DNA of 64,000 nt from an uncultured Hyphomicrobiales bacterium (GTDB taxonomy: Bacteria; Bacteroidota; Ignavibacteria; Kapaibacteriales; UBA2268). Position numbers and translations under genes: made by a program. The stretch lies in the NCBI GenBank assembly GCA_964637845.1, contig CAZWXI010000002.1, positions 28,667-92,666 of the forward strand, given 5' to 3'. Shown in pieces: positions 29,043-42,794 of the stretch. Each line of letters begins with the position of its first letter. The first letter of the stretch is position 1. Below the pieces are notes generated by a model. That model ran no database searches and was not told the DNA's origin. It saw only the letters and a program-made list of their open reading frames with translations.

Positions 29043-30039
29043 AAATGTCTCTATTTAATGAGTTAGTCAATATCAAATTAAGAAAAACGGGCATCCATAG
29101 TCTGAGTTCTATCAAATATCCCCCAACAAAGCATACTAAGAAATAGGGCAAAGAAAACAGTAAACTATAAATCGCTATATTTGTTTGCATTTGAGAATTG
29201 AGCCTTGAAATCAACAAAAAACAAACTCCTACAAGAAATGTCAAACCAGCATAATTATATATACTGAATAGATTTGATACTACCGTTACTTCTTGAATGG
29301 TGGATTGTTCGAAACCAAGTATGAGTCTTAGTAGAAAATAAGTAATCAACCAAACGCATATACTTATTATTAAATCTCGTTGAGTATTTCTATCATGAAA
29401 TTTTCCACTTGCGATTATTATCGCACCGTGTACAGCTAATATCAATGCGGAGGATTCGCGATTAGTAGTAGCGATAATCAGTATGATTAAATAGGTAAAA
29501 AAGGAATGGTTATTAGCTTTCTTTAAATGTCGAATCAAAAAATTAACAGCAAGTATGTGCAAAAAATAAGATATGTTGTCGTATGGTACCACTACGAATT
29601 GCGTGATAGCTAATAATGAGTTATAAATCAAGATTTCATTGACTGGGTGTGAGTTATCGCGACTATCATTAGTTTTAGAAATGAAATACAATAAACCTAT
29701 TGATGAAAGCACCGTAAAAATAGTATTAAGCATGAAGTATGACATATATACATGCGATTCAGCTTCGAAAGTATTTGTTATTACGTGGATTTTTTGGACG
29801 GTGTCAAAATCAGCCCTAAAATCTCTCAGCAATTCAAACAAAAATATCATTAAGTATTTGCTCAAAATACGATACTTGTATATGCCTGATTCATACTGCT
29901 CGATATAGCCTGCTTCCGTGAAGCTTCCACTTGTATATGCAGTTGTAAAATAAAAACTGATAATTATTTGAAAAATCAACGGTATGACAATACATAAAGT
30001 CGCAAAAATCAGAATTTTTCTGATTATGTGCATCTTCAT
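29029..30039 (-). CDS. Polytopic integral membrane protein of unknown function (336 aa)
   Basis: About nine hydrophobic helices by eye. The start overlaps the stop of the upstream S8 peptidase gene (ATGA at 30036-30039). No motif recognised. Confidence 0.5.
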   Translation of the reverse strand: MKMHIIRKILIFATLCIVIPLIFQIIISFYFTTAYTSGSFTEAGYIEQYESGIYKYRILSKYLMIFLFELLRDFRADFDTVQKIHVITNTFEAESHVYMSYFMLNTIFTVLSSIGLLYFISKTNDSRDNSHPVNEILIYNSLLAITQFVVVPYDNISYFLHILAVNFLIRHLKKANNHSFFTYLIILIIATTNRESSALILAVHGAIIIASGKFHDRNTQRDLIISICVWLITYFLLRLILGFEQSTIQEVTVVSNLFSIYNYAGLTFLVGVCFLLISRLNSQMQTNIAIYSLLFSLPYFLVCFVGGYLIELRLWMPVFLNLILTNSLNRDIFTVN

Positions 30040-33000
30040 GGTAACACAACAAATTTGTTTTTTCGTGTGAAAACTTCACGCCCGTCTGAGTTGGCTCCAC
30101 TGACTTCATAAGTATAAATACCCGGTGGTACCAAATTACCTATTTTGTCTCTGCCATCCCATTCCACACCTCCATTGCCGTTATTTTCCTGCAAACTAAT
30201 TATTTCAACTCCGTCTAAACTCATGATTTTCACAGTCGCGTAATTCGTAAGATTTGCAAAAAAGATTTTTGGCTCCTCGGATAACACAATTGGATGTGGA
30301 AATACGTAAGTATCTCTGAGGTCATCAGCCGATATAACAAAGCCCAAAGTATTGCCGGCGCCTTTTGTTATCGGTTTCCCTTCGGATGAAATTACATTGT
30401 AAGCACTGATTGTATAATCAAATCCTCGAGCACCTTTTTCACGCAAACTTTGACTAATGTTAAGGAGTACTTTGGTTGAGTCTGTTATACTCCTTTCTGC
30501 GTAAAGGACTTCACCGAAAGGTCTCATAACGTAATTATCCCTATTTGATGCAGTTCCGTTTTCGACTGGCTCTGAATACTCAAGCTCAAGTAATGTTGGG
30601 GCAAGGAATTGCAATTTAACGAGGAAAATTTCATCTGGTAGAACGCCTTCAGAGAATCTGAAATTTGCCGAATCCTTAGATACTAAGTTCCCGAATCTAT
30701 CACGGAAACTGTTTATAACTAATTTATATTCTACATCAATTTCAAAATCTTCGGAGAATGTTATAATTACAGTTGAATCATATTGCGTAATTGAACTCGA
30801 ACTCGTAGCGATGTAATTATTATTGTCATAAAGTAAAAATACACCCGCCGGGATATAATTATGAGGTAAAAATCCGCTAAATGCGACTTTCAGAGAATTA
30901 CTTGCTACATTAATGATACTGATGAATTTTGCAGGAGCAACCGTAATTATACTCGTAATATCAGTAAAATCACTAAAGTTGTCCTTTAATTTTGAATTAT
31001 AACTTCGCATGACGAATTCATATTCGCTGTTCGGTGTCATGTCATCAATTATTAGTTCATTACTGTCGGATTCAGCGATTAATATTGCGTCAATCCCGTT
31101 GTCAGTACGAACTAATTGATATATCAAGTACTCTTCGGCATCCGGCATCTTATCCCATGTGAGTTTTCCTCGGGTGTCAGTAACAGCCTCTCCGCGGAAA
31201 TTAGTTGGTACTCGAGGTCCTGCAAAATCTTTCCTGTATTCGAAAAAGCGCATTGAATTGAAAGTGGAAAAACCCAATTCATTCATCCCGTTACCATCAA
31301 TATCGGCAATGAGAGCAGAATTAGATAAGGTTGCGGGGTACCACCAAAATTTGTCAAAAGTCTTCGTTTTTTTATTGTATTTATAAACATACAAGTTCGG
31401 GAATGGCGAAAAGACAATTTCATCTCCGGGATCACCGTCCAAATCACCTGCTGCAACGCCGTTTCTATATCCGAATAATGTCCTGACGAAACCTTGTTTG
31501 ACGCCATAAAAGTGTTCTTTCCAAATCTCTTTGTAATTATTAAATCCATCTGATTTTAATACTCTCGCTGTCCAAATATTTGACGGAGCTTCATTGTTGG
31601 AGAATAAAACTTCGGATTCGGCAAACATGTGTATTATTTCTTTAACACCGTCACCCTCAATGTCTGCCGAGGTCAAAAACTGATTTGAATTGGAACGTTT
31701 CGAGGAATCTGCCCATTCAAGGGTGAATTTACCGTCTCTATACTCATAAATCATGACGTTGCTATTCGTGTTCACTATACACAGTTCAGTGTTGCCGTCA
31801 CCGTCTAAATCACCAATTGCCGAACCACGTGTTATCGGAACATTAAATAAATTATTCGGTAATTCGGCTGTGGTTTTTACTCTGTATTCGCCATTAGCGT
31901 ATTCGTATGCGATATAGTGTCTGTTCTGAACTTCATATCTATAGCCGATTAGATTAGCTTTACCGGTACCGTCTAAATCAAATATTTGTTCACCCCAAAG
32001 TGTTGTTCCGGGCTGATTTCTGAAAATTTGTTTTGCAAACGGGCTGTCTCCTCGAAAGTTACCTTGCTCGGCGACAGAATTGAATTGCGCAGTGGCAAAG
32101 ATTTCAGGTATTCCATCACCATTTGAATCACCCATACCAACGGGGATCCATGCCGCTGCGGATGTATCACGTAATTTCAATTCACCGTTCTGATATTGAT
32201 ATACCTTTGTGGTGCCGATATTCAAACTTGACAAATCATTTACTACAAATACCGGCTTACCGTCGCCATATAAATCATGATAATTGTTATTGATATAAGC
32301 ACGATGAATTGCGTACGGTTTGGGGTCAAAATTCGATGTTGTCCATACATCATTTTCAATCTCGAATGAAAATCTATGACTTACTAAATCTCCACCGTTA
32401 GTCATGACAGTTGCTATTCCCGCATATTTCAGCCCGGGACGGACATCTGTTATTTCTACGATATGGAATTGGCTTTTGTGACGCGATTGTTTTAGAAAAT
32501 GATAATCTTCATCGACCTCAGACTTATATTTTACAGTCATTGTCCCTTTTTTATTGGTCTTAGCGGCCATTAATATGATTCTTTTATCATTTGAAAATGC
32601 ATGTACGATATTGAAATATTCAAACCTTGCTGAATCTGCTTCATTACTAATATTTATAGTTATTCTTCGCTCGATAGTTTTTTTATTTTTTAATGTCACT
32701 TCCAGTGAGATGATATATTTTCCGCTTGTTAATTCGGAAATATCAACTGTTCCTAACTTGGCGTTAATCACTTGATTTTGATAAACATCGCTTTCTAACC
32801 AACTTTCGGGCAATACTCCTTTGCCGATTTTAAGTTTATAGCTATCAAATAATGGCGTGGCTACCGACCCCAAAATATCAATACTTGGAGTTCTTCTGAC
32901 GAAGAATTCTGCTTCATTCAGTGGTTGCGAAATGCTGAAAACAGATGCTCCGGCATAATTTACTGCTTCGTAAGCATCTAATATTCCCGCTCCATAGAAA

Positions 33001-34385
33001 ACATCCCATCCCTCTGCACCTGTATCTGTTGCGGTTGCTGTCAATATTCCATGAATCTCTTCAGGTTTGAGAGTGGGGTCGATTTCAAATAGCATTGCTA
33101 CTACTGCGGAAACATGAGGTGCGGCTATTGATGTACCTGAAACCAAAGCGTATTTAGCACCTGTTACTGTTGTCATTACTTGCTCTCCGGGAGCAGTCAA
33201 ATCAGTAAATGATCCGTAATTGCTTCTGCCGTATCTGCCTCCGCTCGAATTCGTTCCGCCAATATTAATTACCTCGGGATATATTGAAGGGTAATGTTCT
33301 CCGAACCAACCCGTATTCCCAGCTGATGTAATCATAACGCACCCAGCCGCATAAGCGAACTTTATTGCGTCGTACATAATTGGTGATTCATATCTTTCAC
33401 CAAAACTAAAATTCAATACTTTTGCTCCATTCATAACTGCATAGACTATCGCTTTGGCTATATCATCGGCTTCGGCGTTTCCCGATATGTCAAATGCTTT
33501 TGATGTCAACACCTTTGCCCCCGGTGCTACTGATGCAATACCGATATTATTGTTTGTTGTGGCTGAAATCACGCCCGATACACTAGTTCCATGGTCACCT
33601 TCGTCCTCTGGAATAGGGTCGGGGTCACGATAATCACCAAAGTTGACCACGTCTTGGTCAACGAAATCAAATCCGATTACATCGTCAATAAATCCGTTAC
33701 CATCATTGTCAATGCCGTCCAAATCTCCCGAAACGCCGTTTCTGATTTCTTTGGCGTTCCAAGCGTCAAACCTACCGTTACCGTTGATGTCTTCGGCTGT
33801 ATTTATCCACAATCCGCCGATTAGGTCTGGATGCTCGAAATCAATTCCGGTGTCAATTACACCTACTATGACTCCCTTGCCTGTGGCTTTTTCCCATGCT
33901 TTTAATGCGTTTACCTGCTTCAAATTCCATTGTGTATCAAATAATGAGTCATTCGTGCGGTTGCTTCTATTAATTTTATATATGTGATTTGGTGTTATGT
34001 TGACAAATGATATATCGTTTTCAAACAATTTTTGAAGACTGTCAATCTCTAAATCTGATTTTATTTCGTAATAATTTCCAAGCATATCCAAACGTATAAG
34101 TGCATCACGGCTTAAAAACTGCGATGAGGATTTGTTTGTGCTAAGTGTGCTCTCTGAAAATACATTATGGACTTGAATATTCAATTCGTTTATGAAAGTC
34201 TTTTGCTTTAAATCGCCCATGTACTTGAGAATGTAGCTTTTATTAGCTTGGGAGTAAGCACTTATCGAGAAAAAAGACGAAATCAAATGTGCGGATAAAA
34301 TTAATACTATACTTTTATTCAGTTGACTTAACATCATTACCTTTAAAATAATTGAGTGCCAATACATAGACGTAATGGCACTCAA
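30036..34385 (-). CDS. Secreted subtilisin-like (S8) serine peptidase with FG-GAP/VCBS calcium-loop repeats, Fn3-like and Ig-like domains and a T9SS C-terminal sorting domain
   Basis: Triad contexts VGVIDTGIDFEHPDL, HGTSVSGVISA, GTSIAAPHVSA. Six D.DGDG-type loops (GDSNGDGIPEI, FDLDGTGKANL, GDLDGDGNTEL, ADIEGDGVKEI, GDLDGDPGDEI, ADIDGNGMNEL). FlgD-Ig-like tail VEWDGRDKIGNLVPPGIYTYEV. The likely true start is an internal Met before the signal peptide MLSQLNKSIVLILSAHLISSFFSISAYSQA (about 34334). Confidence 0.85.
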   Translation of the reverse strand: MSAITSMYWHSIILKVMMLSQLNKSIVLILSAHLISSFFSISAYSQANKSYILKYMGDLKQKTFINELNIQVHNVFSESTLSTNKSSSQFLSRDALIRLDMLGNYYEIKSDLEIDSLQKLFENDISFVNITPNHIYKINRSNRTNDSLFDTQWNLKQVNALKAWEKATGKGVIVGVIDTGIDFEHPDLIGGLWINTAEDINGNGRFDAWNAKEIRNGVSGDLDGIDNDGNGFIDDVIGFDFVDQDVVNFGDYRDPDPIPEDEGDHGTSVSGVISATTNNNIGIASVAPGAKVLTSKAFDISGNAEADDIAKAIVYAVMNGAKVLNFSFGERYESPIMYDAIKFAYAAGCVMITSAGNTGWFGEHYPSIYPEVINIGGTNSSGGRYGRSNYGSFTDLTAPGEQVMTTVTGAKYALVSGTSIAAPHVSAVVAMLFEIDPTLKPEEIHGILTATATDTGAEGWDVFYGAGILDAYEAVNYAGASVFSISQPLNEAEFFVRRTPSIDILGSVATPLFDSYKLKIGKGVLPESWLESDVYQNQVINAKLGTVDISELTSGKYIISLEVTLKNKKTIERRITINISNEADSARFEYFNIVHAFSNDKRIILMAAKTNKKGTMTVKYKSEVDEDYHFLKQSRHKSQFHIVEITDVRPGLKYAGIATVMTNGGDLVSHRFSFEIENDVWTTSNFDPKPYAIHRAYINNNYHDLYGDGKPVFVVNDLSSLNIGTTKVYQYQNGELKLRDTSAAAWIPVGMGDSNGDGIPEIFATAQFNSVAEQGNFRGDSPFAKQIFRNQPGTTLWGEQIFDLDGTGKANLIGYRYEVQNRHYIAYEYANGEYRVKTTAELPNNLFNVPITRGSAIGDLDGDGNTELCIVNTNSNVMIYEYRDGKFTLEWADSSKRSNSNQFLTSADIEGDGVKEIIHMFAESEVLFSNNEAPSNIWTARVLKSDGFNNYKEIWKEHFYGVKQGFVRTLFGYRNGVAAGDLDGDPGDEIVFSPFPNLYVYKYNKKTKTFDKFWWYPATLSNSALIADIDGNGMNELGFSTFNSMRFFEYRKDFAGPRVPTNFRGEAVTDTRGKLTWDKMPDAEEYLIYQLVRTDNGIDAILIAESDSNELIIDDMTPNSEYEFVMRSYNSKLKDNFSDFTDITSIITVAPAKFISIINVASNSLKVAFSGFLPHNYIPAGVFLLYDNNNYIATSSSSITQYDSTVIITFSEDFEIDVEYKLVINSFRDRFGNLVSKDSANFRFSEGVLPDEIFLVKLQFLAPTLLELEYSEPVENGTASNRDNYVMRPFGEVLYAERSITDSTKVLLNISQSLREKGARGFDYTISAYNVISSEGKPITKGAGNTLGFVISADDLRDTYVFPHPIVLSEEPKIFFANLTNYATVKIMSLDGVEIISLQENNGNGGVEWDGRDKIGNLVPPGIYTYEVSGANSDGREVFTRKNKFVVLP

Positions 34386-34437: not shown

Positions 34438-36432
34438 TTATTTACTGTATAATGTTTTACTAATCGTTATATTTTCGGCACAATCAAGTTCTTGTACGAA
34501 TTCAATTGTTTTCAAGCCGGATTTACTGACGACTATTACATATTCACCCTTACAGATTTTTTCCCCAGTTGAAACTTTGCCCGACTTAGTCTCATACTGG
34601 TAAATAACTTTACCGTTTCGTCTCATTTGAATTTTTGCTCCATGTACCTCAGAACCATTTCCATCCAAAATTTCAAAGTTAATATTATTATCGCAGCACG
34701 GTTCCGTCGTTTTCTTGGGTTCTAATTTGAATTCACGAGCAACGGGTTTGTCGCAATTTTCAATGTAAACATAATCTTCTAGAACATTAAACTCACCATG
34801 AGCTATGCGGACCCAGTATTTGCGGAGGCATAATTTCTCGAAAACTACTTCGCCCGAACTGTTTGTTTTTAGCATGTTTGTATATTGATTGTCGGCTCTT
34901 GTGATTTTTACTTCGGCATTGGCAATTGGATTATTTGTTGATTTATCAGTAACGATAATCTGCAATTCTCCGCAGCAGTCGCCGCTTTGCTCTTTAGACA
35001 AAGTTTTAGTATAGCTGATGTTCTCTTTACAATCGAAAGATTGTTGAAACTCAATTGCTTTGTAGCCCTCTTTTTTAACCACAACGCCGTATTTTCCTTT
35101 ACAAATCTCTTCAAATTTTACCTTACCATCGGCATTTGTTTTACCTTCCTTTACAACTTTTCCATTCAAATAAAGCAGTACGATTGCATCTTTGATGGGA
35201 TTTTTATCATCATCTTGAATAATCAATTCTAACGAATTATCGCAGCAGTCGCCGCTTTGCTCTTTAGACAAAGTTTTAGTATAGCTGATGTTCTCTTTAC
35301 AATCGAAAGATTGTTGAAACTCAATTGCTTTGTAGCCCTCTTTTTTAACCACAACGCCGTATTTTCCTTTACAAATCTCTTCAAATTTTACCTTACCATC
35401 GGCATTTGTTTTACCTTCCTTTACAACTTTTCCATTCAAATAAAGCAGTACGATTGCATCTTTGATGGGATTTTTATCATCATCTTGAACAATCAATTCT
35501 AACGAATTATCGCAGCAGTCGCCGCTTTGCTCTTTAACTAATACTTTTTCGTGAGAGACGACTTCTTCGCATTCGAATGTGACGGTATATTCAATAATTT
35601 TGAACCCCTGCTTCTTGATGGCAACACCGTATTTGCCTTTGCATAGTTCGCTGAAAGATACTTTTCCGTCATTATTAGTATATCCGTCGTGGACTAATTT
35701 ACCATCACGATATAAAAGTACTTTTGTTTCGGCAATCGGTTTATTATCTTCATCCATTACCAATAAATTCAGAGTATTGTTACAACATTCTTCCGCTTCT
35801 TTTTTCTTTAATTTGATAGTCAAGTCTTTTGGGTCACAATTTTCCACGTAAAAATAATCCTCTTTGACTTGGTAACCTTCAAGAGCAACTCTCAGCCAAT
35901 ATTTACCTTTGCATAATTCCTCAAATTTCACACTACCATTGGCATTTGTATGCTTGATTTCAGAGAATTCATCGTTCTTGGTTATTTTAACTTCTACATT
36001 TTCTAATGGTTCATCGGATTCGTAATCAAGAACCGTGATATTTATAATGCCGCAACAACTGTCTTTTTCCATTAATTTGAAAACAACGGGACTTTTGCCT
36101 TTTTCAGCTTTGTGATTCTCATAAAATTCGGCAAAATTGCCTGTTTGTGTTGCAAAAATTTCGTGAGTAACACGATATCTAAGACCCTCCTTGTTGATTG
36201 GAATTGACTTCAACGTGAACATGCCTTTGTCGTTGGTGATATCTGAGGTAATTAGCTCTGTCTTGGCATCAAACAATTCAACTTTGGCATCTTTGACGGG
36301 CTTTTCCGCAGAATCAAAAACATATCCCGTAAAATCTTCTGTGGTTGCGGGGCTTGTCGAATTATCACTACATGATGATACGACAAAAATTGCTAATAAT
36401 GATAGTAAAAAAGTATATCTTAAAGTTTTCAT
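34438..36432 (-). CDS. Lipoprotein: N-terminal CarboxypepD_reg-like domain plus six ~90-aa Cys-Cys-initiated beta-sandwich-like modules
   Basis: Lipobox LLAIFVVSSC. Repeated blocks CC..(L/I)...(V/I).D......P(I/L)..A.V.......NG.V.F..(L/I)CKGKY...(V/I)...G(Y/F)........(F/E)(D/N)C. Confidence 0.7.
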   Translation of the reverse strand: MKTLRYTFLLSLLAIFVVSSCSDNSTSPATTEDFTGYVFDSAEKPVKDAKVELFDAKTELITSDITNDKGMFTLKSIPINKEGLRYRVTHEIFATQTGNFAEFYENHKAEKGKSPVVFKLMEKDSCCGIINITVLDYESDEPLENVEVKITKNDEFSEIKHTNANGSVKFEELCKGKYWLRVALEGYQVKEDYFYVENCDPKDLTIKLKKKEAEECCNNTLNLLVMDEDNKPIAETKVLLYRDGKLVHDGYTNNDGKVSFSELCKGKYGVAIKKQGFKIIEYTVTFECEEVVSHEKVLVKEQSGDCCDNSLELIVQDDDKNPIKDAIVLLYLNGKVVKEGKTNADGKVKFEEICKGKYGVVVKKEGYKAIEFQQSFDCKENISYTKTLSKEQSGDCCDNSLELIIQDDDKNPIKDAIVLLYLNGKVVKEGKTNADGKVKFEEICKGKYGVVVKKEGYKAIEFQQSFDCKENISYTKTLSKEQSGDCCGELQIIVTDKSTNNPIANAEVKITRADNQYTNMLKTNSSGEVVFEKLCLRKYWVRIAHGEFNVLEDYVYIENCDKPVAREFKLEPKKTTEPCCDNNINFEILDGNGSEVHGAKIQMRRNGKVIYQYETKSGKVSTGEKICKGEYVIVVSKSGLKTIEFVQELDCAENITISKTLYSK
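34971..35536. repeat. Near-perfect 270-bp in-frame tandem duplication (2 full copies plus 26 nt) inside the lipoprotein gene
   Basis: 34971-35240 and 35241-35510 are identical except T at 35220 versus C at 35490. 35511-35536 repeats the first 26 nt again. The antisense track ORFs 34987..35232 and 35257..35502 translate identically. Confidence 0.95.
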
Positions 36433-36520: not shown

Positions 36521-38407
36521 TTACTCCTCAATAACTTCATAAATTTCTTCCAAAATAATCTCTTCAAGCATATCGTCGGTTACTTCCGGTCTGTTTGTAA
36601 TAGCCATCAAATTGAGTTGCTCGGGATTTTCATATAACTCGGGATTAAAAAATGCTTTCAACAGTTTGGCTGCAATCGGTGCTGCTATAGCTCCTCCAAA
36701 ACCCGCATTTTCGACAAACACACACATGGCGATTTGAGGGTCATTTTTAGGGGCGAAACAAACGAACCAAGCATGGTCTTTCCCCTGAGGATTCTGAGCA
36801 GTGCCGGTTTTTCCGCAAACTTCAACATCCGATATTCGTACTGATGCTGCTGTACCACCGGAGACATTGACGACATCAGACATACCATTTTTAATTACGT
36901 TTAAAATCCGCTCGTCGATAGGTATTTTTGTAGCATAATTCTCGAGTGGTTCGAGTTTGTTTGTTAAATTATTTCGAATATGTGTTACTACTCGTGGTCT
37001 GTAATAATATCCACCGTTAGCTATAGATGCTGTATAAGCTGCCATTTGCAATGGTGTTATCAAAATTTCACCTTGCCCGATGCCGTAATTTATCATGCGT
37101 CCCGTGAACGGAATTTTTCCGAACCGTTTCGTCAACCAATCTCGAGTCGGGATTAAACCAGATCTCTCATGCGGTAAATCAATACCTGTCTTGTAGCCAA
37201 AATTGAAGAGATTAGTATATTTTTCAAACAAATCAATTCCGAGTTTCATGCCCAATGTGTAAAAATACGTGTTGCAGGATGTTTGTATAGCTCTTCGGGC
37301 GTTTATATTACCGTGAGTTCCGTGACATTTCCAGAATCTACCACCGTAATTTAAGCCGCCGCTACAATGAATCGTAGTGTTTTCATCTATGATACCTTCC
37401 TGCAAAGCGGCGATTGCTATCAACATCTTCCATGTCGAACCCGGTGGATATTGCGATTGTATCGCCCGGTTGAGCATAGGCGATGCCGGGTCATTCATTA
37501 AACTGTTATAAAGACTTGCGGAAATTTTCCCGCTGAAATCTCTCGGGTCATAATCTGGTTTACTGACCATAGCCAGTACTGAACCATTGCCCGGGTCAAG
37601 TGCTACAATTGCTCCACGTCTATCTTTAAGGAGTTTTTCTGCATGTTCTTGCAGACGAATGTCAATACCTAAATATACATCAAAACCATTTTTAGAAGAA
37701 ATATCGCTTCTTCCGTTATCGAAACTCGAAACTTTTTGACCGAATTTATTCACGGTAACAAACTGCAAACCCTCTCTACCACGCAGATCGTCGTCATAAG
37801 TTAGCTCTATTCCCGATTGACCAATTTGGTCTCCTTGATATAGGAACGGTGTTCTTGCCAATTGCTCTTTGGATATCTCACGAGTATATCCGAGTACATG
37901 AGCCATATTTCCTTCAAATTCATATAAACGTTTAGAGTCTATCATAATCTCAACACCAGACAAATGGTCGCTATACTCCTCTATCAATGAGACGATTCTA
38001 AAATCTGCATCGCGATGTATCTTGATAGGTACAAATTTGGAGAATCCTTTGTTGGCATCTAATAATTTAATTATTTCAAGAGAATCAATGCCCAAAATTG
38101 AGCATAATAATGGAATTGCATTACGATGAAAGTCATTAGGCGTTAGTATTACCGAAAAAGAGGGCTCATTATGGACAAGCATATTACCATTTCTGTCAAA
38201 TACATTTCCTCGGAAAGGTTCAATTCTTACTGTTTTAATGGCTTGAGCTTCACTGTCAGAACGATATTTGTGACCTTCAACGACTTGTAGTTGAGCAAGT
38301 CGTCCGACAAACACAAGGAATACAAAAACAACGATTATTTTGAGGATTCTTCCTTTTTTCTGAACTCCCGGCGATGTACTATCGCCAAATCTAATATCAA
38401 TTGCCAT
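36521..38407 (-). CDS. mrdA: Penicillin-binding protein 2 (elongasome transpeptidase)
   Basis: N-terminal TM then RLAQLQVVEGHKYRSDSEAQAIK..RIEPFRGNVFDRNG. Active-site motifs PGSTWK (SxxK), SCN (SxN) and KTGTAQ (KTG). Acidic C-terminal tail. Confidence 0.9.
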   Translation of the reverse strand: MAIDIRFGDSTSPGVQKKGRILKIIVVFVFLVFVGRLAQLQVVEGHKYRSDSEAQAIKTVRIEPFRGNVFDRNGNMLVHNEPSFSVILTPNDFHRNAIPLLCSILGIDSLEIIKLLDANKGFSKFVPIKIHRDADFRIVSLIEEYSDHLSGVEIMIDSKRLYEFEGNMAHVLGYTREISKEQLARTPFLYQGDQIGQSGIELTYDDDLRGREGLQFVTVNKFGQKVSSFDNGRSDISSKNGFDVYLGIDIRLQEHAEKLLKDRRGAIVALDPGNGSVLAMVSKPDYDPRDFSGKISASLYNSLMNDPASPMLNRAIQSQYPPGSTWKMLIAIAALQEGIIDENTTIHCSGGLNYGGRFWKCHGTHGNINARRAIQTSCNTYFYTLGMKLGIDLFEKYTNLFNFGYKTGIDLPHERSGLIPTRDWLTKRFGKIPFTGRMINYGIGQGEILITPLQMAAYTASIANGGYYYRPRVVTHIRNNLTNKLEPLENYATKIPIDERILNVIKNGMSDVVNVSGGTAASVRISDVEVCGKTGTAQNPQGKDHAWFVCFAPKNDPQIAMCVFVENAGFGGAIAAPIAAKLLKAFFNPELYENPEQLNLMAITNRPEVTDDMLEEIILEEIYEVIEE

Positions 38408-39815
38408 TTTTGGAGATAATGTTAGAGTTTATTAAATTTTCCAATATACAAATAAACGAAATTACCATCGCAGTTACAAATAAACCGTCCCGATAGAAGA
38501 AAATTGGACCTGTGGAGTTTGCCAATAGTAAAGTTAGAAACAAGCCTATCGCGGAAAATGAAACGGATTTATGTATGTCGCTTCTTGCCTTTGGTATCAA
38601 ATTAATGGCTTTGAAAAGATAAAAAAGAAGAAAACTAAAATAAAATAGCGATAAAGGTATTCCTATTCGAAAAATAATATGAAGATATCCATTGTGAACA
38701 ACAGAGGTATGTAGAGTTTTCAAAGTAATTGGGTCATAAAAATGAAATTTCTTTGCTAATCCATAACCACCAAGAGGATTTTCCAAAATTTTTTGATTAA
38801 TTAGTTCCCATTCGACTAATCTGGCGTAAAGCGACATATCCTTAGTTAGTTTTCCAGCCGAAAAAAGTCGTTTTTTTACAACCTCATATAGTATTGTTAC
38901 ATTGTCTTTAAGAAAAATAAATGAAACGATGCTCATAAAGCTAATTATAAATGACATATATACTGCCATTCTTATCTTCTTTTGCATGGGAATGATAATA
39001 AAAAATACAATAGTTGATAAGATTAGAATTAACCAGAATGTTCGTGAAAAAGTAGTAATCAGAAAAAAGATTGATGAAGCAGCGAATATTAAAGAAAAAA
39101 TCTTCAATTTTATATCGTTCGTCATAATCAAAAAAATTAAACCCACCACAGATGATGCAGTATATAAGGTCTGATTTGCATTCATTGTATGTGCCATCTC
39201 ATATGCGTAAACTATCCTGACTGTAATACGTATGTAATAATCATATAATTGATAAATCCCTACACATAATATCACAAATGCGGCAAACAACAGATACTGT
39301 TGAAAATCTTTTTCAGTTTTTATTATATCGCGAATCGGAAAATAAAGTAACATTATGAACATTATTGTATATTCACGTATCCACATTTCTGGTGCTGTAT
39401 CATTTAAAATTGCTATAAATAGATTAAAAGGTAACAACAAAAAAAATGTCAATAAAAGCCAATCACCTTTGTTCCTTACAACTTTTTCTTTCTTAACAAA
39501 CAATTTGTAGGCAAACCACAAAATAACGCTGCCAATCAAATAAACACCTAACATTAAATCCACCACAGTAACACCATCACTTGCTGTATGAAAAAATATA
39601 CCGGCAAATACATTAAGTAAATACAGCCATGCTTTTGGTTTTTTAATAACTAAGTAAGCTAATGGGAATGCTAACAAGATGGGTATCAGAAAAATGCTGA
39701 GTTCAAAATATACCAGCAATAATGTTACTCCTAAGAACAGTACTGATAACAATAATATCAAATAGTGATTTGATTTACTGCCAAATATATTGGTATATTG
39801 CAGGGATACCGACAT
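38397..39815 (-). CDS. O-antigen ligase / Wzy_C-family polytopic membrane protein
   Basis: About 11-12 TM helices. The periplasmic-loop block NPLGGYGLAKKFHFYD....LHTSVVHNGYLHIIFRIGIPL resembles the Wzy_C motif (G.G....aHN.yL..l.e.G). No SEDS (RodA/FtsW) motifs seen. Confidence 0.6.
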   Translation of the reverse strand: MSVSLQYTNIFGSKSNHYLILLLSVLFLGVTLLLVYFELSIFLIPILLAFPLAYLVIKKPKAWLYLLNVFAGIFFHTASDGVTVVDLMLGVYLIGSVILWFAYKLFVKKEKVVRNKGDWLLLTFFLLLPFNLFIAILNDTAPEMWIREYTIMFIMLLYFPIRDIIKTEKDFQQYLLFAAFVILCVGIYQLYDYYIRITVRIVYAYEMAHTMNANQTLYTASSVVGLIFLIMTNDIKLKIFSLIFAASSIFFLITTFSRTFWLILILSTIVFFIIIPMQKKIRMAVYMSFIISFMSIVSFIFLKDNVTILYEVVKKRLFSAGKLTKDMSLYARLVEWELINQKILENPLGGYGLAKKFHFYDPITLKTLHTSVVHNGYLHIIFRIGIPLSLFYFSFLLFYLFKAINLIPKARSDIHKSVSFSAIGLFLTLLLANSTGPIFFYRDGLFVTAMVISFICILENLINSNIISKNGN

Positions 39816-39818
39816 ATT

Positions 39819-40973
39819 CTAATCGAGTTGTTTCAAATGCTTTTTTAAATTGCCGAAACTATTTACCAAAACGAGTGTAAAAATAGCCAAAATAAATCCC
39901 CCAAAAGTAGCTCCTGCAACAATGGACATTCTTTTTGGTTTCTCCTTTCTATCAGCTGGGATAGCCTCATCTAAAACTAACAGCTTTTTTACTTTTTTGA
40001 TTTCATCAAGTCGGGCTCTTTCTATCATTGGTAACAAAAATACCTTAACTTTAGAATATGTTTCAAACTCAGTGAACAGACGCATAAATTCAATACCTTC
40101 TTCTGCTGCACTTTCAATAGTAAAATTACCCGCAAATCCCGGTTTATTCGTTATTTCGGCAACTTTGCTTTTAGTTTGGTCTTTTATTGTTTTAATTGAT
40201 TGGGTTATATGGTCAAATTCACCTAAGTATGATTTGTAGTATTCATATGCGATTTCGTTTTTAATCTCCTCAGCTTTTAAGTCCGATAATGCCTTGCTGA
40301 TTGAAGCCGCTTGGTCTGTGGGAGAGAAAATTAAAGTCCTTCTTGAGAACTTTTCTAAAGTATCTGCAATGAATCTAATTGTTGAGTCAATATTCTTTAT
40401 TTGCTTATTCATGTACTCCAAATTGAAAGCCGCTTCCTCATTAAATAATCTAGTAGCCAAATCATTTGTTATTTCACCGATTCTGTTTGCCATTTTTGCG
40501 GCTCTATGAGGGTCTTCATCAAGAACGCTTACTGTATAATTACCTTCTTTTTCGTAAGTAATATCCACATTTTTAGATAATCTTTTTCTTATTTTGGACA
40601 TCATCGTATCAGGGATATCGTAAACTTTTGCAAGTTCAAATTCTCGAATAATGCTGTCCAATACAGTCCGACTTTGCAAAACAACAATTAATGAATAGCC
40701 TTCTCCGGTTTGCCCTGAAAGTTTAGTTAAGCCAAAGTCTCGCAAGGTAGAAGATATCGTCCCCATTGCATTGCCCATCATGTTTTCATTAGACTGCGGA
40801 GGCACTAAATTTGCTGTTGACATATATTGATTTGGTATCAGTAAAGATATTCCTACAGAAGAAATCGAAACAGTAAAAGTAAAAATGATGATATACCATT
40901 TATGCTTTAGAAGAAATGCTAAAAACTTAACCGTAGAGAACTCGTCTTTATATGGACTAATATCATTTGACAT
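39819..40973 (-). CDS. Polysaccharide chain-length determinant (Wzz / PCP family) protein
   Basis: N-terminal FLAFLLKHKWYIIIFTFTVSISSVGISLLIPNQYMSTANLVPP (Wzz domain pattern), a long helical periplasmic region, and a C-terminal TM helix IVAGATFGGFILAIFTLVLV. Confidence 0.7.
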   Translation of the reverse strand: MSNDISPYKDEFSTVKFLAFLLKHKWYIIIFTFTVSISSVGISLLIPNQYMSTANLVPPQSNENMMGNAMGTISSTLRDFGLTKLSGQTGEGYSLIVVLQSRTVLDSIIREFELAKVYDIPDTMMSKIRKRLSKNVDITYEKEGNYTVSVLDEDPHRAAKMANRIGEITNDLATRLFNEEAAFNLEYMNKQIKNIDSTIRFIADTLEKFSRRTLIFSPTDQAASISKALSDLKAEEIKNEIAYEYYKSYLGEFDHITQSIKTIKDQTKSKVAEITNKPGFAGNFTIESAAEEGIEFMRLFTEFETYSKVKVFLLPMIERARLDEIKKVKKLLVLDEAIPADRKEKPKRMSIVAGATFGGFILAIFTLVLVNSFGNLKKHLKQLD

Positions 40974-41024
40974 AATTTTCGATTTTGTTGTTGATACAAA
41001 CCTCTAAAATATACTATTTGTCAC

Positions 41025-42794
41025 TTATTTTAAAGGACTTTTAATAATCGGTGGTTTTCTGTAGTCCCTATCGCTACTTCGTATTTCAATGTCTTCAAAC
41101 AATAAATCTCCCGATACTATCGAGACTCCGAGATATTGGTCCCCGCCACTTATAAACGGAGATATTACTGCCGGTGCCAAATGATTATGAACGTAGTAGT
41201 TATTGCCAACTAACAGAATGTCTTTAAATGACTGAACGGTTGCTCCCACCAAATCACCACCGCGAATGAGTTCTCTTTTACCATCCGGAAATACTTTATA
41301 TGCTTCAACTATGGTGATTGAATTTTGGCTCATTGATGGTTGATATACTCCATATGCTATCCTGAATAATCCGGTAAACAAAATATTTTGGTTTAACAAC
41401 TTTGTAATCACTACTCCGTATGGTAATTCGCGTGCTTTACATAATTCCATCATGCGGTTAATCAGCGAATCAGTAGTGACTTTGTGGGTCGCCTCAGATT
41501 TCAAAATTAAATTTGAAAGCATTGCCGAGCCACCTCGTTTGTGACCATTTGATTGTTTAACTCTGCGGGTCGGTATCCGTTCGGATAAAAGATTTTTCAA
41601 ATATCCCTTCTCAACAAGATTTACTACCTGTGATTTTAATCCGTCGCCATCGAATTCAAATGAACCAATGAGAGGTGTGTTGTGGAGTTTCGGGATTGTC
41701 GGGTCAGCTTGAATACTTAGGAATTCAGGTAAAACTCTTCCACCGATTTTATTCTGAAAAGATCCGAATCTGTCATTAAATGCAGTTCCGCCTTCAGCTA
41801 ATGGGGCCCTTTGCGTAACGAAATTTGGTGCAAAAACCTGAGCAATCAATTCCCATGCTGCTTGTCCAGAAAACAACACAGGACCAGAATAAGAATCATC
41901 TAATGAAGTTATTTTGGTTAAATCATCTAATACTTTTGCTGTATTTTTGACAGCACTGATTAGTGAGTCCTCTTCGGGGAAATCATTCGGAGATTTTACT
42001 AAGGATGTATAAAAATTTGTCAGATGCATTCCGTCGGGAGCTTGTGCAAAGGCGACTACCTCCAGTCCAGCATATATATCATTTCTTACGTATTCTGTCC
42101 CTTCACTGTTTACGTAAAAGATCTTTTCCGGTAAATATTCAATTCCTACTGTAGAATTAATTATGTTCGAATATTCTCTGAAGATGCTGGATAATTTTTT
42201 GGACAAATTTTCAAATTTAACTTTATCAAAATTGGGTATTTCAATATATGAAGCATTCTTCGTCGGTGGAACTTCAATAAAATCTGGAATTGTATCGCGG
42301 CGCATTAAATTCTTTAGGATTGCTTCCTTTTTTGAGTAAAGTTCTGCGGCTTGCTTGTATGCGGCATCAGTAGCAAGCCAAAGCTCGCGTCTTAATGTCG
42401 CATAATCTAATTCAACCGGTATTTGCCGATTGCGGAAATTTTCTTCGTCGTCACTACTTCCGAAAAAGCTTAATCCTACATCAAAAAAATTTGTGTTGTC
42501 GAATTGATAGCTGCCGACTCTAACTCCGACGTTTAAAAGCGCATATCGAATATAATTAGATTCTGATAGCAAGCCGTAATCGGATTTGATATTATAAACA
42601 TCTCTTATCCTTAACGTGTATTCGATGTAGTATGGCTCTCGGACAGATTCAAGCCTTAGTTTATTCATCGAGCGGTTCAACTCATCTCGTAAAGCTTCGA
42701 GAATTCGAGTGTCCTTGTCGTGCTTGTTAATAATTGCAAACGAATTAATAATATTTACAGCAAAAACCATCAATATTAATATGTTTCTGAGCAT
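41025..42794 (-). CDS. TldD/PmbA-family protein with signal peptide, lacking the HExxxH site (TldE/PmbA-like partner)
   Basis: Collinear with the neighbouring 572-aa paralog (shared blocks YY(I/F)(E/S)Y, (R/V)(V/L)G.YQFDNT, (F/Y).FD(G/D)(D/E)G(L/I)K, SNGH.R). At the position of the metal site it has AQVFAPNFVTQRAP instead. N-terminal signal MLRNILILMVFAVNIINSFA. Confidence 0.7.
   Translation of the reverse strand: MLRNILILMVFAVNIINSFAIINKHDKDTRILEALRDELNRSMNKLRLESVREPYYIEYTLRIRDVYNIKSDYGLLSESNYIRYALLNVGVRVGSYQFDNTNFFDVGLSFFGSSDDEENFRNRQIPVELDYATLRRELWLATDAAYKQAAELYSKKEAILKNLMRRDTIPDFIEVPPTKNASYIEIPNFDKVKFENLSKKLSSIFREYSNIINSTVGIEYLPEKIFYVNSEGTEYVRNDIYAGLEVVAFAQAPDGMHLTNFYTSLVKSPNDFPEEDSLISAVKNTAKVLDDLTKITSLDDSYSGPVLFSGQAAWELIAQVFAPNFVTQRAPLAEGGTAFNDRFGSFQNKIGGRVLPEFLSIQADPTIPKLHNTPLIGSFEFDGDGLKSQVVNLVEKGYLKNLLSERIPTRRVKQSNGHKRGGSAMLSNLILKSEATHKVTTDSLINRMMELCKARELPYGVVITKLLNQNILFTGLFRIAYGVYQPSMSQNSITIVEAYKVFPDGKRELIRGGDLVGATVQSFKDILLVGNNYYVHNHLAPAVISPFISGGDQYLGVSIVSGDLLFEDIEIRSSDRDYRKPPIIKSPLK

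Follow-up and report, generated by a model that had tools for sequence, protein, structure and literature searches.

The window examined here, 64,000 nucleotides of contig CAZWXI010000002.1 (assembly GCA_964637845.1, GTDB order Kapaibacteriales), carries on its minus strand an open reading frame at 34438-36432 that encodes a 664-aa protein with pairs of adjacent cysteines recurring along its length. The question raised by this gene, called the CC gene below, is what kind of protein it specifies and what its cysteines are for. The protein proved to be a string of seven transthyretin-like (CarboxypepD_reg) β-sandwich domains and nothing else, with a predicted lipid anchor. The explanation that accounts best for the whole of the evidence, and which we hold to be rather probable, is a lipid-anchored, disulphide-stapled, semi-flexible stalk of variable length in the envelope or on the cell surface.

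As read from the sequence, residues 1-21 of the protein, MKTLRYTFLLSLLAIFVVSS-C, include a signal peptide that is closed by the lipobox FVVSS-C21. There are 25 Cys in total; the stretch from C21 to C126 is free of them, and CC dipeptides at residues 126, 216, 306, 396, 486 and 579 form the starts of six modules of 90, 90, 90, 90, 93 and 86 aa. Counted within the module, the Cys occupy positions 1, 2, 49 and 74 in module 1, positions 1, 2, 49 and 73 in modules 2-4 and 6, and positions 1, 2, 50 and 75 in module 5. A first-pass annotation of the window had described a lipoprotein with a Cys-free first domain and six modules of about 90 aa, each opening with CC and containing two further Cys (at 1, 2, 49 and 73 in modules 3 and 4). 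The residue positions agree with this description, and the six opening strings and the two subtype motifs quoted there are all present exactly as given. The division into two subtypes is backed by pairwise identities: modules 1 and 5 (subtype A) are 45% identical to each other, modules 2, 3, 4 and the more distant module 6 (subtype B) share 42-53% (52-53% between module 2 and modules 3 and 4, 42-43% between module 6 and the same two), and the identity of A to B is 18-35%. Modules 3 and 4 differ by a single mismatch in 270 nt, a G/A difference that exchanges Val and Ile, and the recent duplication noticed in the first pass is therefore a 270-bp tandem copy.

The same annotation had considered that the modules might constitute a new repeat family, a proposal which comparison with known domains did not sustain. 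The whole protein matches PF13620 (CarboxypepD_reg, Transthyretin clan) with 179.9 bits across 6 stretches, and it also matches the SdrD_B (119 bits), SpaA and CarbopepD_reg_2 models. Taken one at a time, modules 1, 2 and 5 exceed the PF13620 gathering score of 32.3 bits, modules 3 and 4 lie just under it and over the SdrD_B cut-off of 29.7 bits (individual scores are listed in the table below), and module 6 gave no Pfam match at E ≤ 1e-4. The Cys-free N-terminal domain, which had been termed CarboxypepD_reg-like, scores just under the PF13620 cut-off as well. All 37 of 37 homologous N-termini match PF13620, the alignment of this domain with the CC-module profile reached an hhalign probability of 96.5%, and the canonical Leu/Ile-Pro stands in it at the site of the modules' Leu/Ile-Cys (C3). 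The protein contains neither a catalytic nor a recognisable binding domain, and no NCBIfam model scored above its cut-off. Weak EF-hand Pfam matches on the T-N-x-D-G-K loop, with E about 5e-4, stayed below the cut-off.

Structure prediction led to the same assignment. The AlphaFold2 (AF2) model of module 3, run with an alignment of 80 modules (mean column identity 37%), is a seven-strand sandwich with a predicted local distance difference test score (pLDDT) of 93.3 and a predicted template modelling score (pTM) of 0.82. Foldseek matched the single module to 1QMU, 3MN8, 5AQ0, 2NSM, 8BDW and 10PS at a probability of 1.00 (TMq 0.6-0.78), the structural neighbours being CnaB2, the Sulfolobus S-layer protein SlaB, Bacillus anthracis TIE, the SdrD B domains (B1-B2), pilin shafts and the transthyretin-like domains of carboxypeptidases D/N. 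The modules are a Cys-decorated, previously undescribed subfamily of a known domain, not a new fold. A model of two modules had a pLDDT of 94.6, a pTM of only 0.56 and a confidence dip in the linker; its Foldseek neighbours are stalk domains that stand in tandem in Gram-positive surface proteins. At such a low pTM the mutual orientation of the domains is not fixed, and the model looks more like beads strung on short linkers than like a fixed rod.

A word-indexed search retrieved 17 homologs of 27-54% identity, all built alike. Their names, where given, are hypothetical protein or transthyretin-like fold, and the organism labels are mostly those of Kapabacteria/Ignavibacteria metagenome bins. 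Module 5 of the window protein is 60% identical to module 5 of the homolog P0002. A module profile run over 1.84 billion representative proteins gave 871 matches at E ≤ 1e-30; about 105 of the best 150 show the CC pattern and are lipoproteins 410-1260 aa long. Giants of 2,000-7,800 aa among the best profile matches were set aside as not belonging to the family, being made of Cys-free generic repeats. The window genome carries a single gene of this kind. Within the same GTDB family, a CC-lipoprotein gene was found in 78 of 101 genomes (45 of 55 genera) and was missing from the other 23, and a 401-genome sample of the phylum contained 9 carriers, only two of them outside the GTDB family. The family is uncharacterised and limited to Kapabacteria-type bacteria; in the literature we found no account of Cys-bearing CarboxypepD_reg repeats or of Kapabacteria lipoproteins. 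Its members have 4-13 modules, and genomes of the same genus encode seven modules against six in the window protein. Taken together with the one-mismatch duplication, these numbers suggest that the length varies by duplication and loss of modules, duplication probably altering it quickly.

In the 80-module alignment no columns other than the four Cys are invariant, a pattern far beyond chance, and G56, Y58 and E71 are near-invariant besides them (in the numbering of the module-3 model, C1, C2, C3 and C4 are C6, C7, C54 and C78). The last of these residues, a Glu of strand F within I-E-F, is kept in at least 90% of modules. The cysteines are conserved in homologs at 27-54% identity, as the first-pass view of them presupposed, and the searches brought up no characterised family in which these Cys have known roles; none of the solved structural relatives has Cys at the aligned positions. 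Cys statistics were collected over 831 modules from 123 homologous lipoproteins. All four reference columns are Cys (CCCC) in 725 modules; by simple count, 691 modules contain four Cys, 84 contain two and 9 contain six, while odd counts are rare (one Cys in 1 module, three in 2, five in 28), so that 784 of the 815 Cys-bearing modules have an even number. The two-Cys modules retain C2 and C3 in 38 cases, C1 and C4 in 33, and one Cys of the CC pair together with C4 in 11, the alignment of the single Cys in these 11 being ambiguous by one residue. CC alone, or C3 and C4 alone, was seen only in incomplete fragments at sequence ends. At the two ends of the chain, 25 first modules are without both C1 and C4, although the module that follows retains the full CC, and 30 last modules retain C1 and C4. 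In the AF2 topology the CC pair lies in the linker, three residues ahead of strand A (residues 9-16), C3 in the turn of the D-E hairpin and C4 in the turn of the F-G hairpin, which places CC, C3 and C4 at the same pole of the sandwich.

This pattern favours two intradomain disulphides, each drawing one of its Cys from the CC pair, and the pairwise co-variation of the Cys is hard to explain without disulphides. Judging by the co-variation and by the modelled strand topology, C1-C4 together with C2-C3 would be the simplest assignment. The first-pass annotation had put forward other roles. It had considered strained vicinal or inter-module disulphides, the latter of which would join C4 to the CC of the next module and cross-brace the chain, and the location of CC at each module boundary, only 17-19 residues past the preceding C4, speaks for such bonds. 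A vicinal bond, however, predicts that CC (and C3/C4) are kept or lost as a unit, whereas the observed two-Cys modules always split the pair; CC therefore does not act as a unit, and no vicinal disulphide is to be expected. An inter-module bond predicts first modules that keep C4 and last modules that lose it, and the opposite was seen: the 25 first modules without C1 are also without C4, and the 30 last ones keep it, which argues against a C4(i)-C1(i+1) link. We regard bonds of either kind as extremely improbable. Metal binding, in the form of a Cys4 site in each module (structural Zn, Fe or another thiophilic metal) and hence a metal-stabilised rod, we consider unlikely. Several points would suit a metal site: metal-thiolate proteins often contain CC motifs, the AF2 strand map brings the four Cys together at one pole of the domain, and the lineage is without DsbA, DsbB and VKOR and shows no general use of disulphides in its exported proteins. 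On the other hand, the 84 two-Cys modules keep specific pairs that are conserved across orthologs (C1 and C4 in the 30 last modules, C2 and C3 in the 25 first ones), three-Cys modules are nearly absent (2 of 831), and no conserved His or Asp co-ligand accompanies the Cys. A four-ligand site does not explain conserved two-Cys modules, the pairs of which fit two intramodule disulphides instead. An electron-transfer 'wire' of Cys clusters was rejected on reasoning, since with one cluster per domain of about 90 aa neighbouring clusters would have about 4 nm between them, a distance too great for electron hopping.

Several results nevertheless weigh against the disulphides. DsbA (PF01323), Thioredoxin_4 (PF13462), DsbB (PF02600) and VKOR (PF07884) are absent from the window genome, which is 95.8% complete, and none of the 101 sampled genomes of the GTDB family has PF02600 or PF07884, the named control genomes having matched as expected. 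The predicted exported proteins of the genome show no even-Cys bias (232 odd vs 172 even, as sorted by a crude signal-peptide heuristic), and by the same heuristic its predicted lipoproteins number 72 odd vs 60 even. The only exported thioredoxin-fold proteins found in the genome are three TlpA/ResA-like ones, and thioredoxins of this type are usually reductive. Finally, seven first modules beginning with A-C-G... keep, by position, C2 with C4, and for this reason the assignment of the individual CC members to C3 or C4 is not secure. The missing Dsb and VKOR proteins and the lack of a parity bias somewhat lower our confidence in the disulphides, and a protein with 24 module Cys is an outlier in an organism not generally relying on envelope disulphides. 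If the bonds do form, the pre-positioned thiols might oxidise spontaneously, especially at the cell surface, or a non-canonical oxidase might exist.

Genes of small membrane proteins of the MauE/DoxX family were observed 6-8 kb from the CC-lipoprotein gene at two unrelated loci (L003/L004 3254-3733 and L007 1-251). MauE-type proteins have been linked elsewhere to disulphide formation; the proximity is probably a coincidence. A scan of the window genome for exported CxxC proteins also recorded exported or lipid-anchored multihaem c-type cytochromes with 5-14 CxxCH each (C12:17160-18507, C109:1275-2523, C93:8730-9813 and C1:39982-40555). As regards the modules themselves, the last one in many homologs (e.g. 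P0014 655-746 and P0015 574-664) is a variant of the form C-[NTY]-T-A...L-x-A-P-x-x-Y...K-E-C. This membrane-distal module has the C1-C4 pair only, 'AP' replacing C3-G, and could be a specialised tip. The window protein is without it and ends in a four-Cys module.

The residues ahead of C21 fit the signal [LVI][ASTVI][GAS]-C of bacterial lipoproteins, the substrates of Lgt and LspA, and the protein is predicted to be lipidated. An equivalent of the lipobox Cys is present in 115 of the 123 family members, with S/A/G at position -1 in 108. At position +3 after this Cys, 76% of the family have an acidic residue, compared with 30% of the predicted lipoproteins of the genome. In Bacteroidetes the surface-export signal consists of K-(D/E)2 or Q-A-(D/E)2 directly after Cys+1 (PMC5080379), and the +3 acidic bias of the family is reminiscent of it. 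The full motif occurs in only some family members, under a rule not validated in Kapabacteria, and the window protein, with C-S-D-N-S after the lipobox and hence one acidic residue, is a weak example of the signal.

From these results, the following architecture may be proposed. Of the CC pair in the linker, one Cys would bond C3 in the D-E turn and the other C4 in the F-G turn, and the two disulphides of each module would fasten both sheets to the incoming linker. This would make the protein a chain of individually locked beads on linkers of about 6-8 residues, with domains that could not be pulled open. Such a semi-flexible rod would measure roughly 25-30 nm, its length differing between lineages with the 4-13 modules, and its most likely role would be that of a stalk or spacer, structural or adhesive, at the outer membrane, where it would probably be surface-exposed.

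The features of the CC gene and its direct neighbours are collected in the following table.

Table 1. Features of the CC-lipoprotein gene and of the genes on either side of it; coordinates are positions in the window.
Feature	Position	Strand	Basis or remark
Signal peptide and lipobox, residues 1-21	36370..36432	-	Sequence reading
Cys-free N-terminal CarboxypepD_reg domain and short tail, residues 22-125	36058..36369	-	PF13620 E = 4.1e-7, 30.7 bits
Module 1, residues 126-215, subtype A	35788..36057	-	PF13620 39.0 bits
Module 2, residues 216-305, subtype B	35518..35787	-	PF13620 34.6 bits; two-module AF2 model
Module 3, residues 306-395, subtype B, first duplication copy	35248..35517	-	AF2; SdrD_B 33.8 bits; PF13620 30.8 bits
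Module 4, residues 396-485, subtype B, second duplication copy	34978..35247	-	1 mismatch in 270 nt vs module 3
Module 5, residues 486-578, subtype A	34699..34977	-	PF13620 35.4 bits
Module 6, residues 579-664 and stop codon, divergent subtype B	34438..34698	-	Family module hidden Markov model (HMM), 119 bits
270-bp tandem duplication, 2.1 copies, 99% matches	34971..35536	.	Tandem Repeats Finder
PBP2 (class B penicillin-binding protein) gene, 88 bp upstream	36521..38407	-	PBP_dimer and Transpeptidase domains in ortholog
S8 peptidase gene, 1449 aa, FG-GAP repeats, downstream	30036..34385	-	Beside the CC gene only in the window, L001 and L032

The gene had been placed in a co-directional envelope block between PBP2 and a giant S8 peptidase, and in the window both neighbours do lie on the same strand as the CC gene. 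In a sample of 26 loci, the window included, only the PBP2 part of this arrangement recurred widely: PBP2 is directly upstream on the same strand in 10 of them, at a gap of roughly 90-290 bp, while among the 25 related loci only 2 have the S8 peptidase as a neighbour. An earlier conclusion of 'no synteny', drawn from the first four distant loci, was dropped after the wider sample had been examined. The block of TldD-like, Wzz, Wzy_C, PBP2, CC and S8 peptidase genes is fully kept around the 53% ortholog (L001), and 16 of the 26 loci, including those of the four distant homologs, have unrelated neighbours. The CC proteins adjoining PBP2 are only about 30-55% identical and belong to at least four subclades. 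In the gene tree, which is poorly resolved, the PBP2 label changes 5 times compared with 8.2 expected by shuffling, and 5 of 500 shuffles gave a number as low. The 88-bp spacer between PBP2 and the CC gene of the window contains a GGGAG motif ahead of the ATG and no terminator-like site.

Two further observations concern the neighbours. The block of TldD/PmbA-like, Wzz, Wzy_C-like and PBP2 genes (window 36521-42794, minus strand) keeps its order and strand in L001, L017, L029, L033 and L034; the PBP2 of this block is only about 50% identical across genera, and no RodA-like gene lies beside it. At L032 11320-15525, an S8 peptidase 41% identical to that of the window follows the CC gene, and PBP2 is not upstream, which makes the PBP2 and S8 adjacencies separable.

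The neighbourhood allows the stalk to be set against two readings in which the CC protein works with an adjacent gene product. It could be a partner of PBP2, acting as a lipid-anchored strut of the cell-elongation machinery, or as its regulator, in a way that follows the logic of the outer-membrane Lpo activators of class A PBPs. The recurrence of PBP2 upstream in 10 of 26 loci, despite the low identity of the CC proteins and their spread over at least four subclades, is in line with such a partnership, as is the spacer without a terminator-like site. We still find it doubtful: the other 16 loci have unrelated neighbours, 23 of the 101 family genomes are without the gene, a three-fold variation in module number is hard to square with a fixed periplasmic span, and the poor resolution of the gene tree leaves room for simply inherited adjacency. 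A role of the protein as substrate, anchor or cofactor of the S8 peptidase appears very unlikely, because S8 is absent from the neighbourhood of the other 23 loci, even though in the window and in L001 the peptidase gene adjoins the CC gene on the same strand, and in L032 it also follows the CC gene. The link to PBP2 may be ancestral, and it could have a function; in most genera it has been lost. An extended form of this idea strikes us as improbable. By it, the family would have begun directly downstream of PBP2, where it still stands in many genera, as a covalently stiffened, Lpo-like connector from the outer membrane that contacts or positions this class B elongation transpeptidase, in a lineage where PBP2 goes with Wzy/Wzz-like genes in place of RodA; its staples would be made by an unrecognised oxidative pathway, DsbB and VKOR being absent. 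The disulphide-stapled stalk of variable length remains the reading that we prefer.

If the Cys pairs are disulphides, the family would represent a Gram-negative answer to the 'inextensible stalk' problem, with two disulphides per transthyretin-like domain, where Gram-positive bacteria use isopeptide bonds or calcium. Being exported, rich in Cys and conserved in a clade without the canonical enzymes of disulphide formation, the family would also be a practical probe of how, or whether, Kapabacteria oxidise their envelope proteins. One 90-aa module is easily expressed and mapped, and the module could serve protein engineering as a compact, covalently locked scaffold. In other respects the gene product is an envelope repeat protein of an ordinary kind, though uncharacterised. 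In our opinion, the most interesting threads to follow are the missing oxidase and the way in which PBP2 recurs beside the gene.

Three known systems can be compared with the window protein. PF13620 CarboxypepD_reg domains (PDB 1QMU and 5AQ0; the NTE domains of SusC-type transporters, 9HFJ) have the same seven-strand prealbumin-like sandwich and share the signature T-[ND]-x-x-G-x-[VF]-x-F...L-x-G-x-Y, with HMM scores at or near the gathering threshold and Foldseek TM values of 0.6-0.78. The canonical members have no Cys at the sites in question, with Pro or Leu at C3, whereas the modules described here add four invariant Cys; and unlike in PF13620 proteins, the domain is the sole building block of the lipoprotein, without a catalytic or transporter part. 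The best structural matches, for one module as well as for two, are the CnaB/SpaA-type pilin and adhesin domains together with TIE of B. anthracis (PDB 8BDW, 6FWV, 3PHS and 5F44). CnaB/SpaA stalks likewise consist of tandem β-sandwiches at the surface, and in each of these an intramolecular covalent bond locks the domain by joining the region of the first strand to the domain's end. The lock consists there of a Lys-Asn/Asp isopeptide, or else of an ester or thioester, formed under catalysis by a buried Glu/Asp, whereas in the CC modules it would be two disulphides. No invariant or near-invariant Lys or Asn was found in the 80-module alignment, which sets the modules apart from the isopeptide-forming CnaB domains. 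CnaB proteins are anchored by sortase through LPXTG, in contrast to the N-terminal lipid predicted here in a diderm. The B-repeats of Staphylococcus aureus SdrD/SdrC (PF17210; PDB 4JDZ and 10PS) are also tandem, rigidifying spacers that project a surface protein, and the Pfam model of these repeats scores both on the whole protein and on module 3 alone. The SdrD B domains are stiffened by Ca2+, bound in three EF-hand-like loops per repeat, and carry an A-domain as ligand-binding head, while the protein of the window is headless and Cys-bearing. By analogy with these systems, it may be the disulphide-based functional counterpart of the isopeptide- or Ca2+-stabilised CnaB and SdrD-B stalks.

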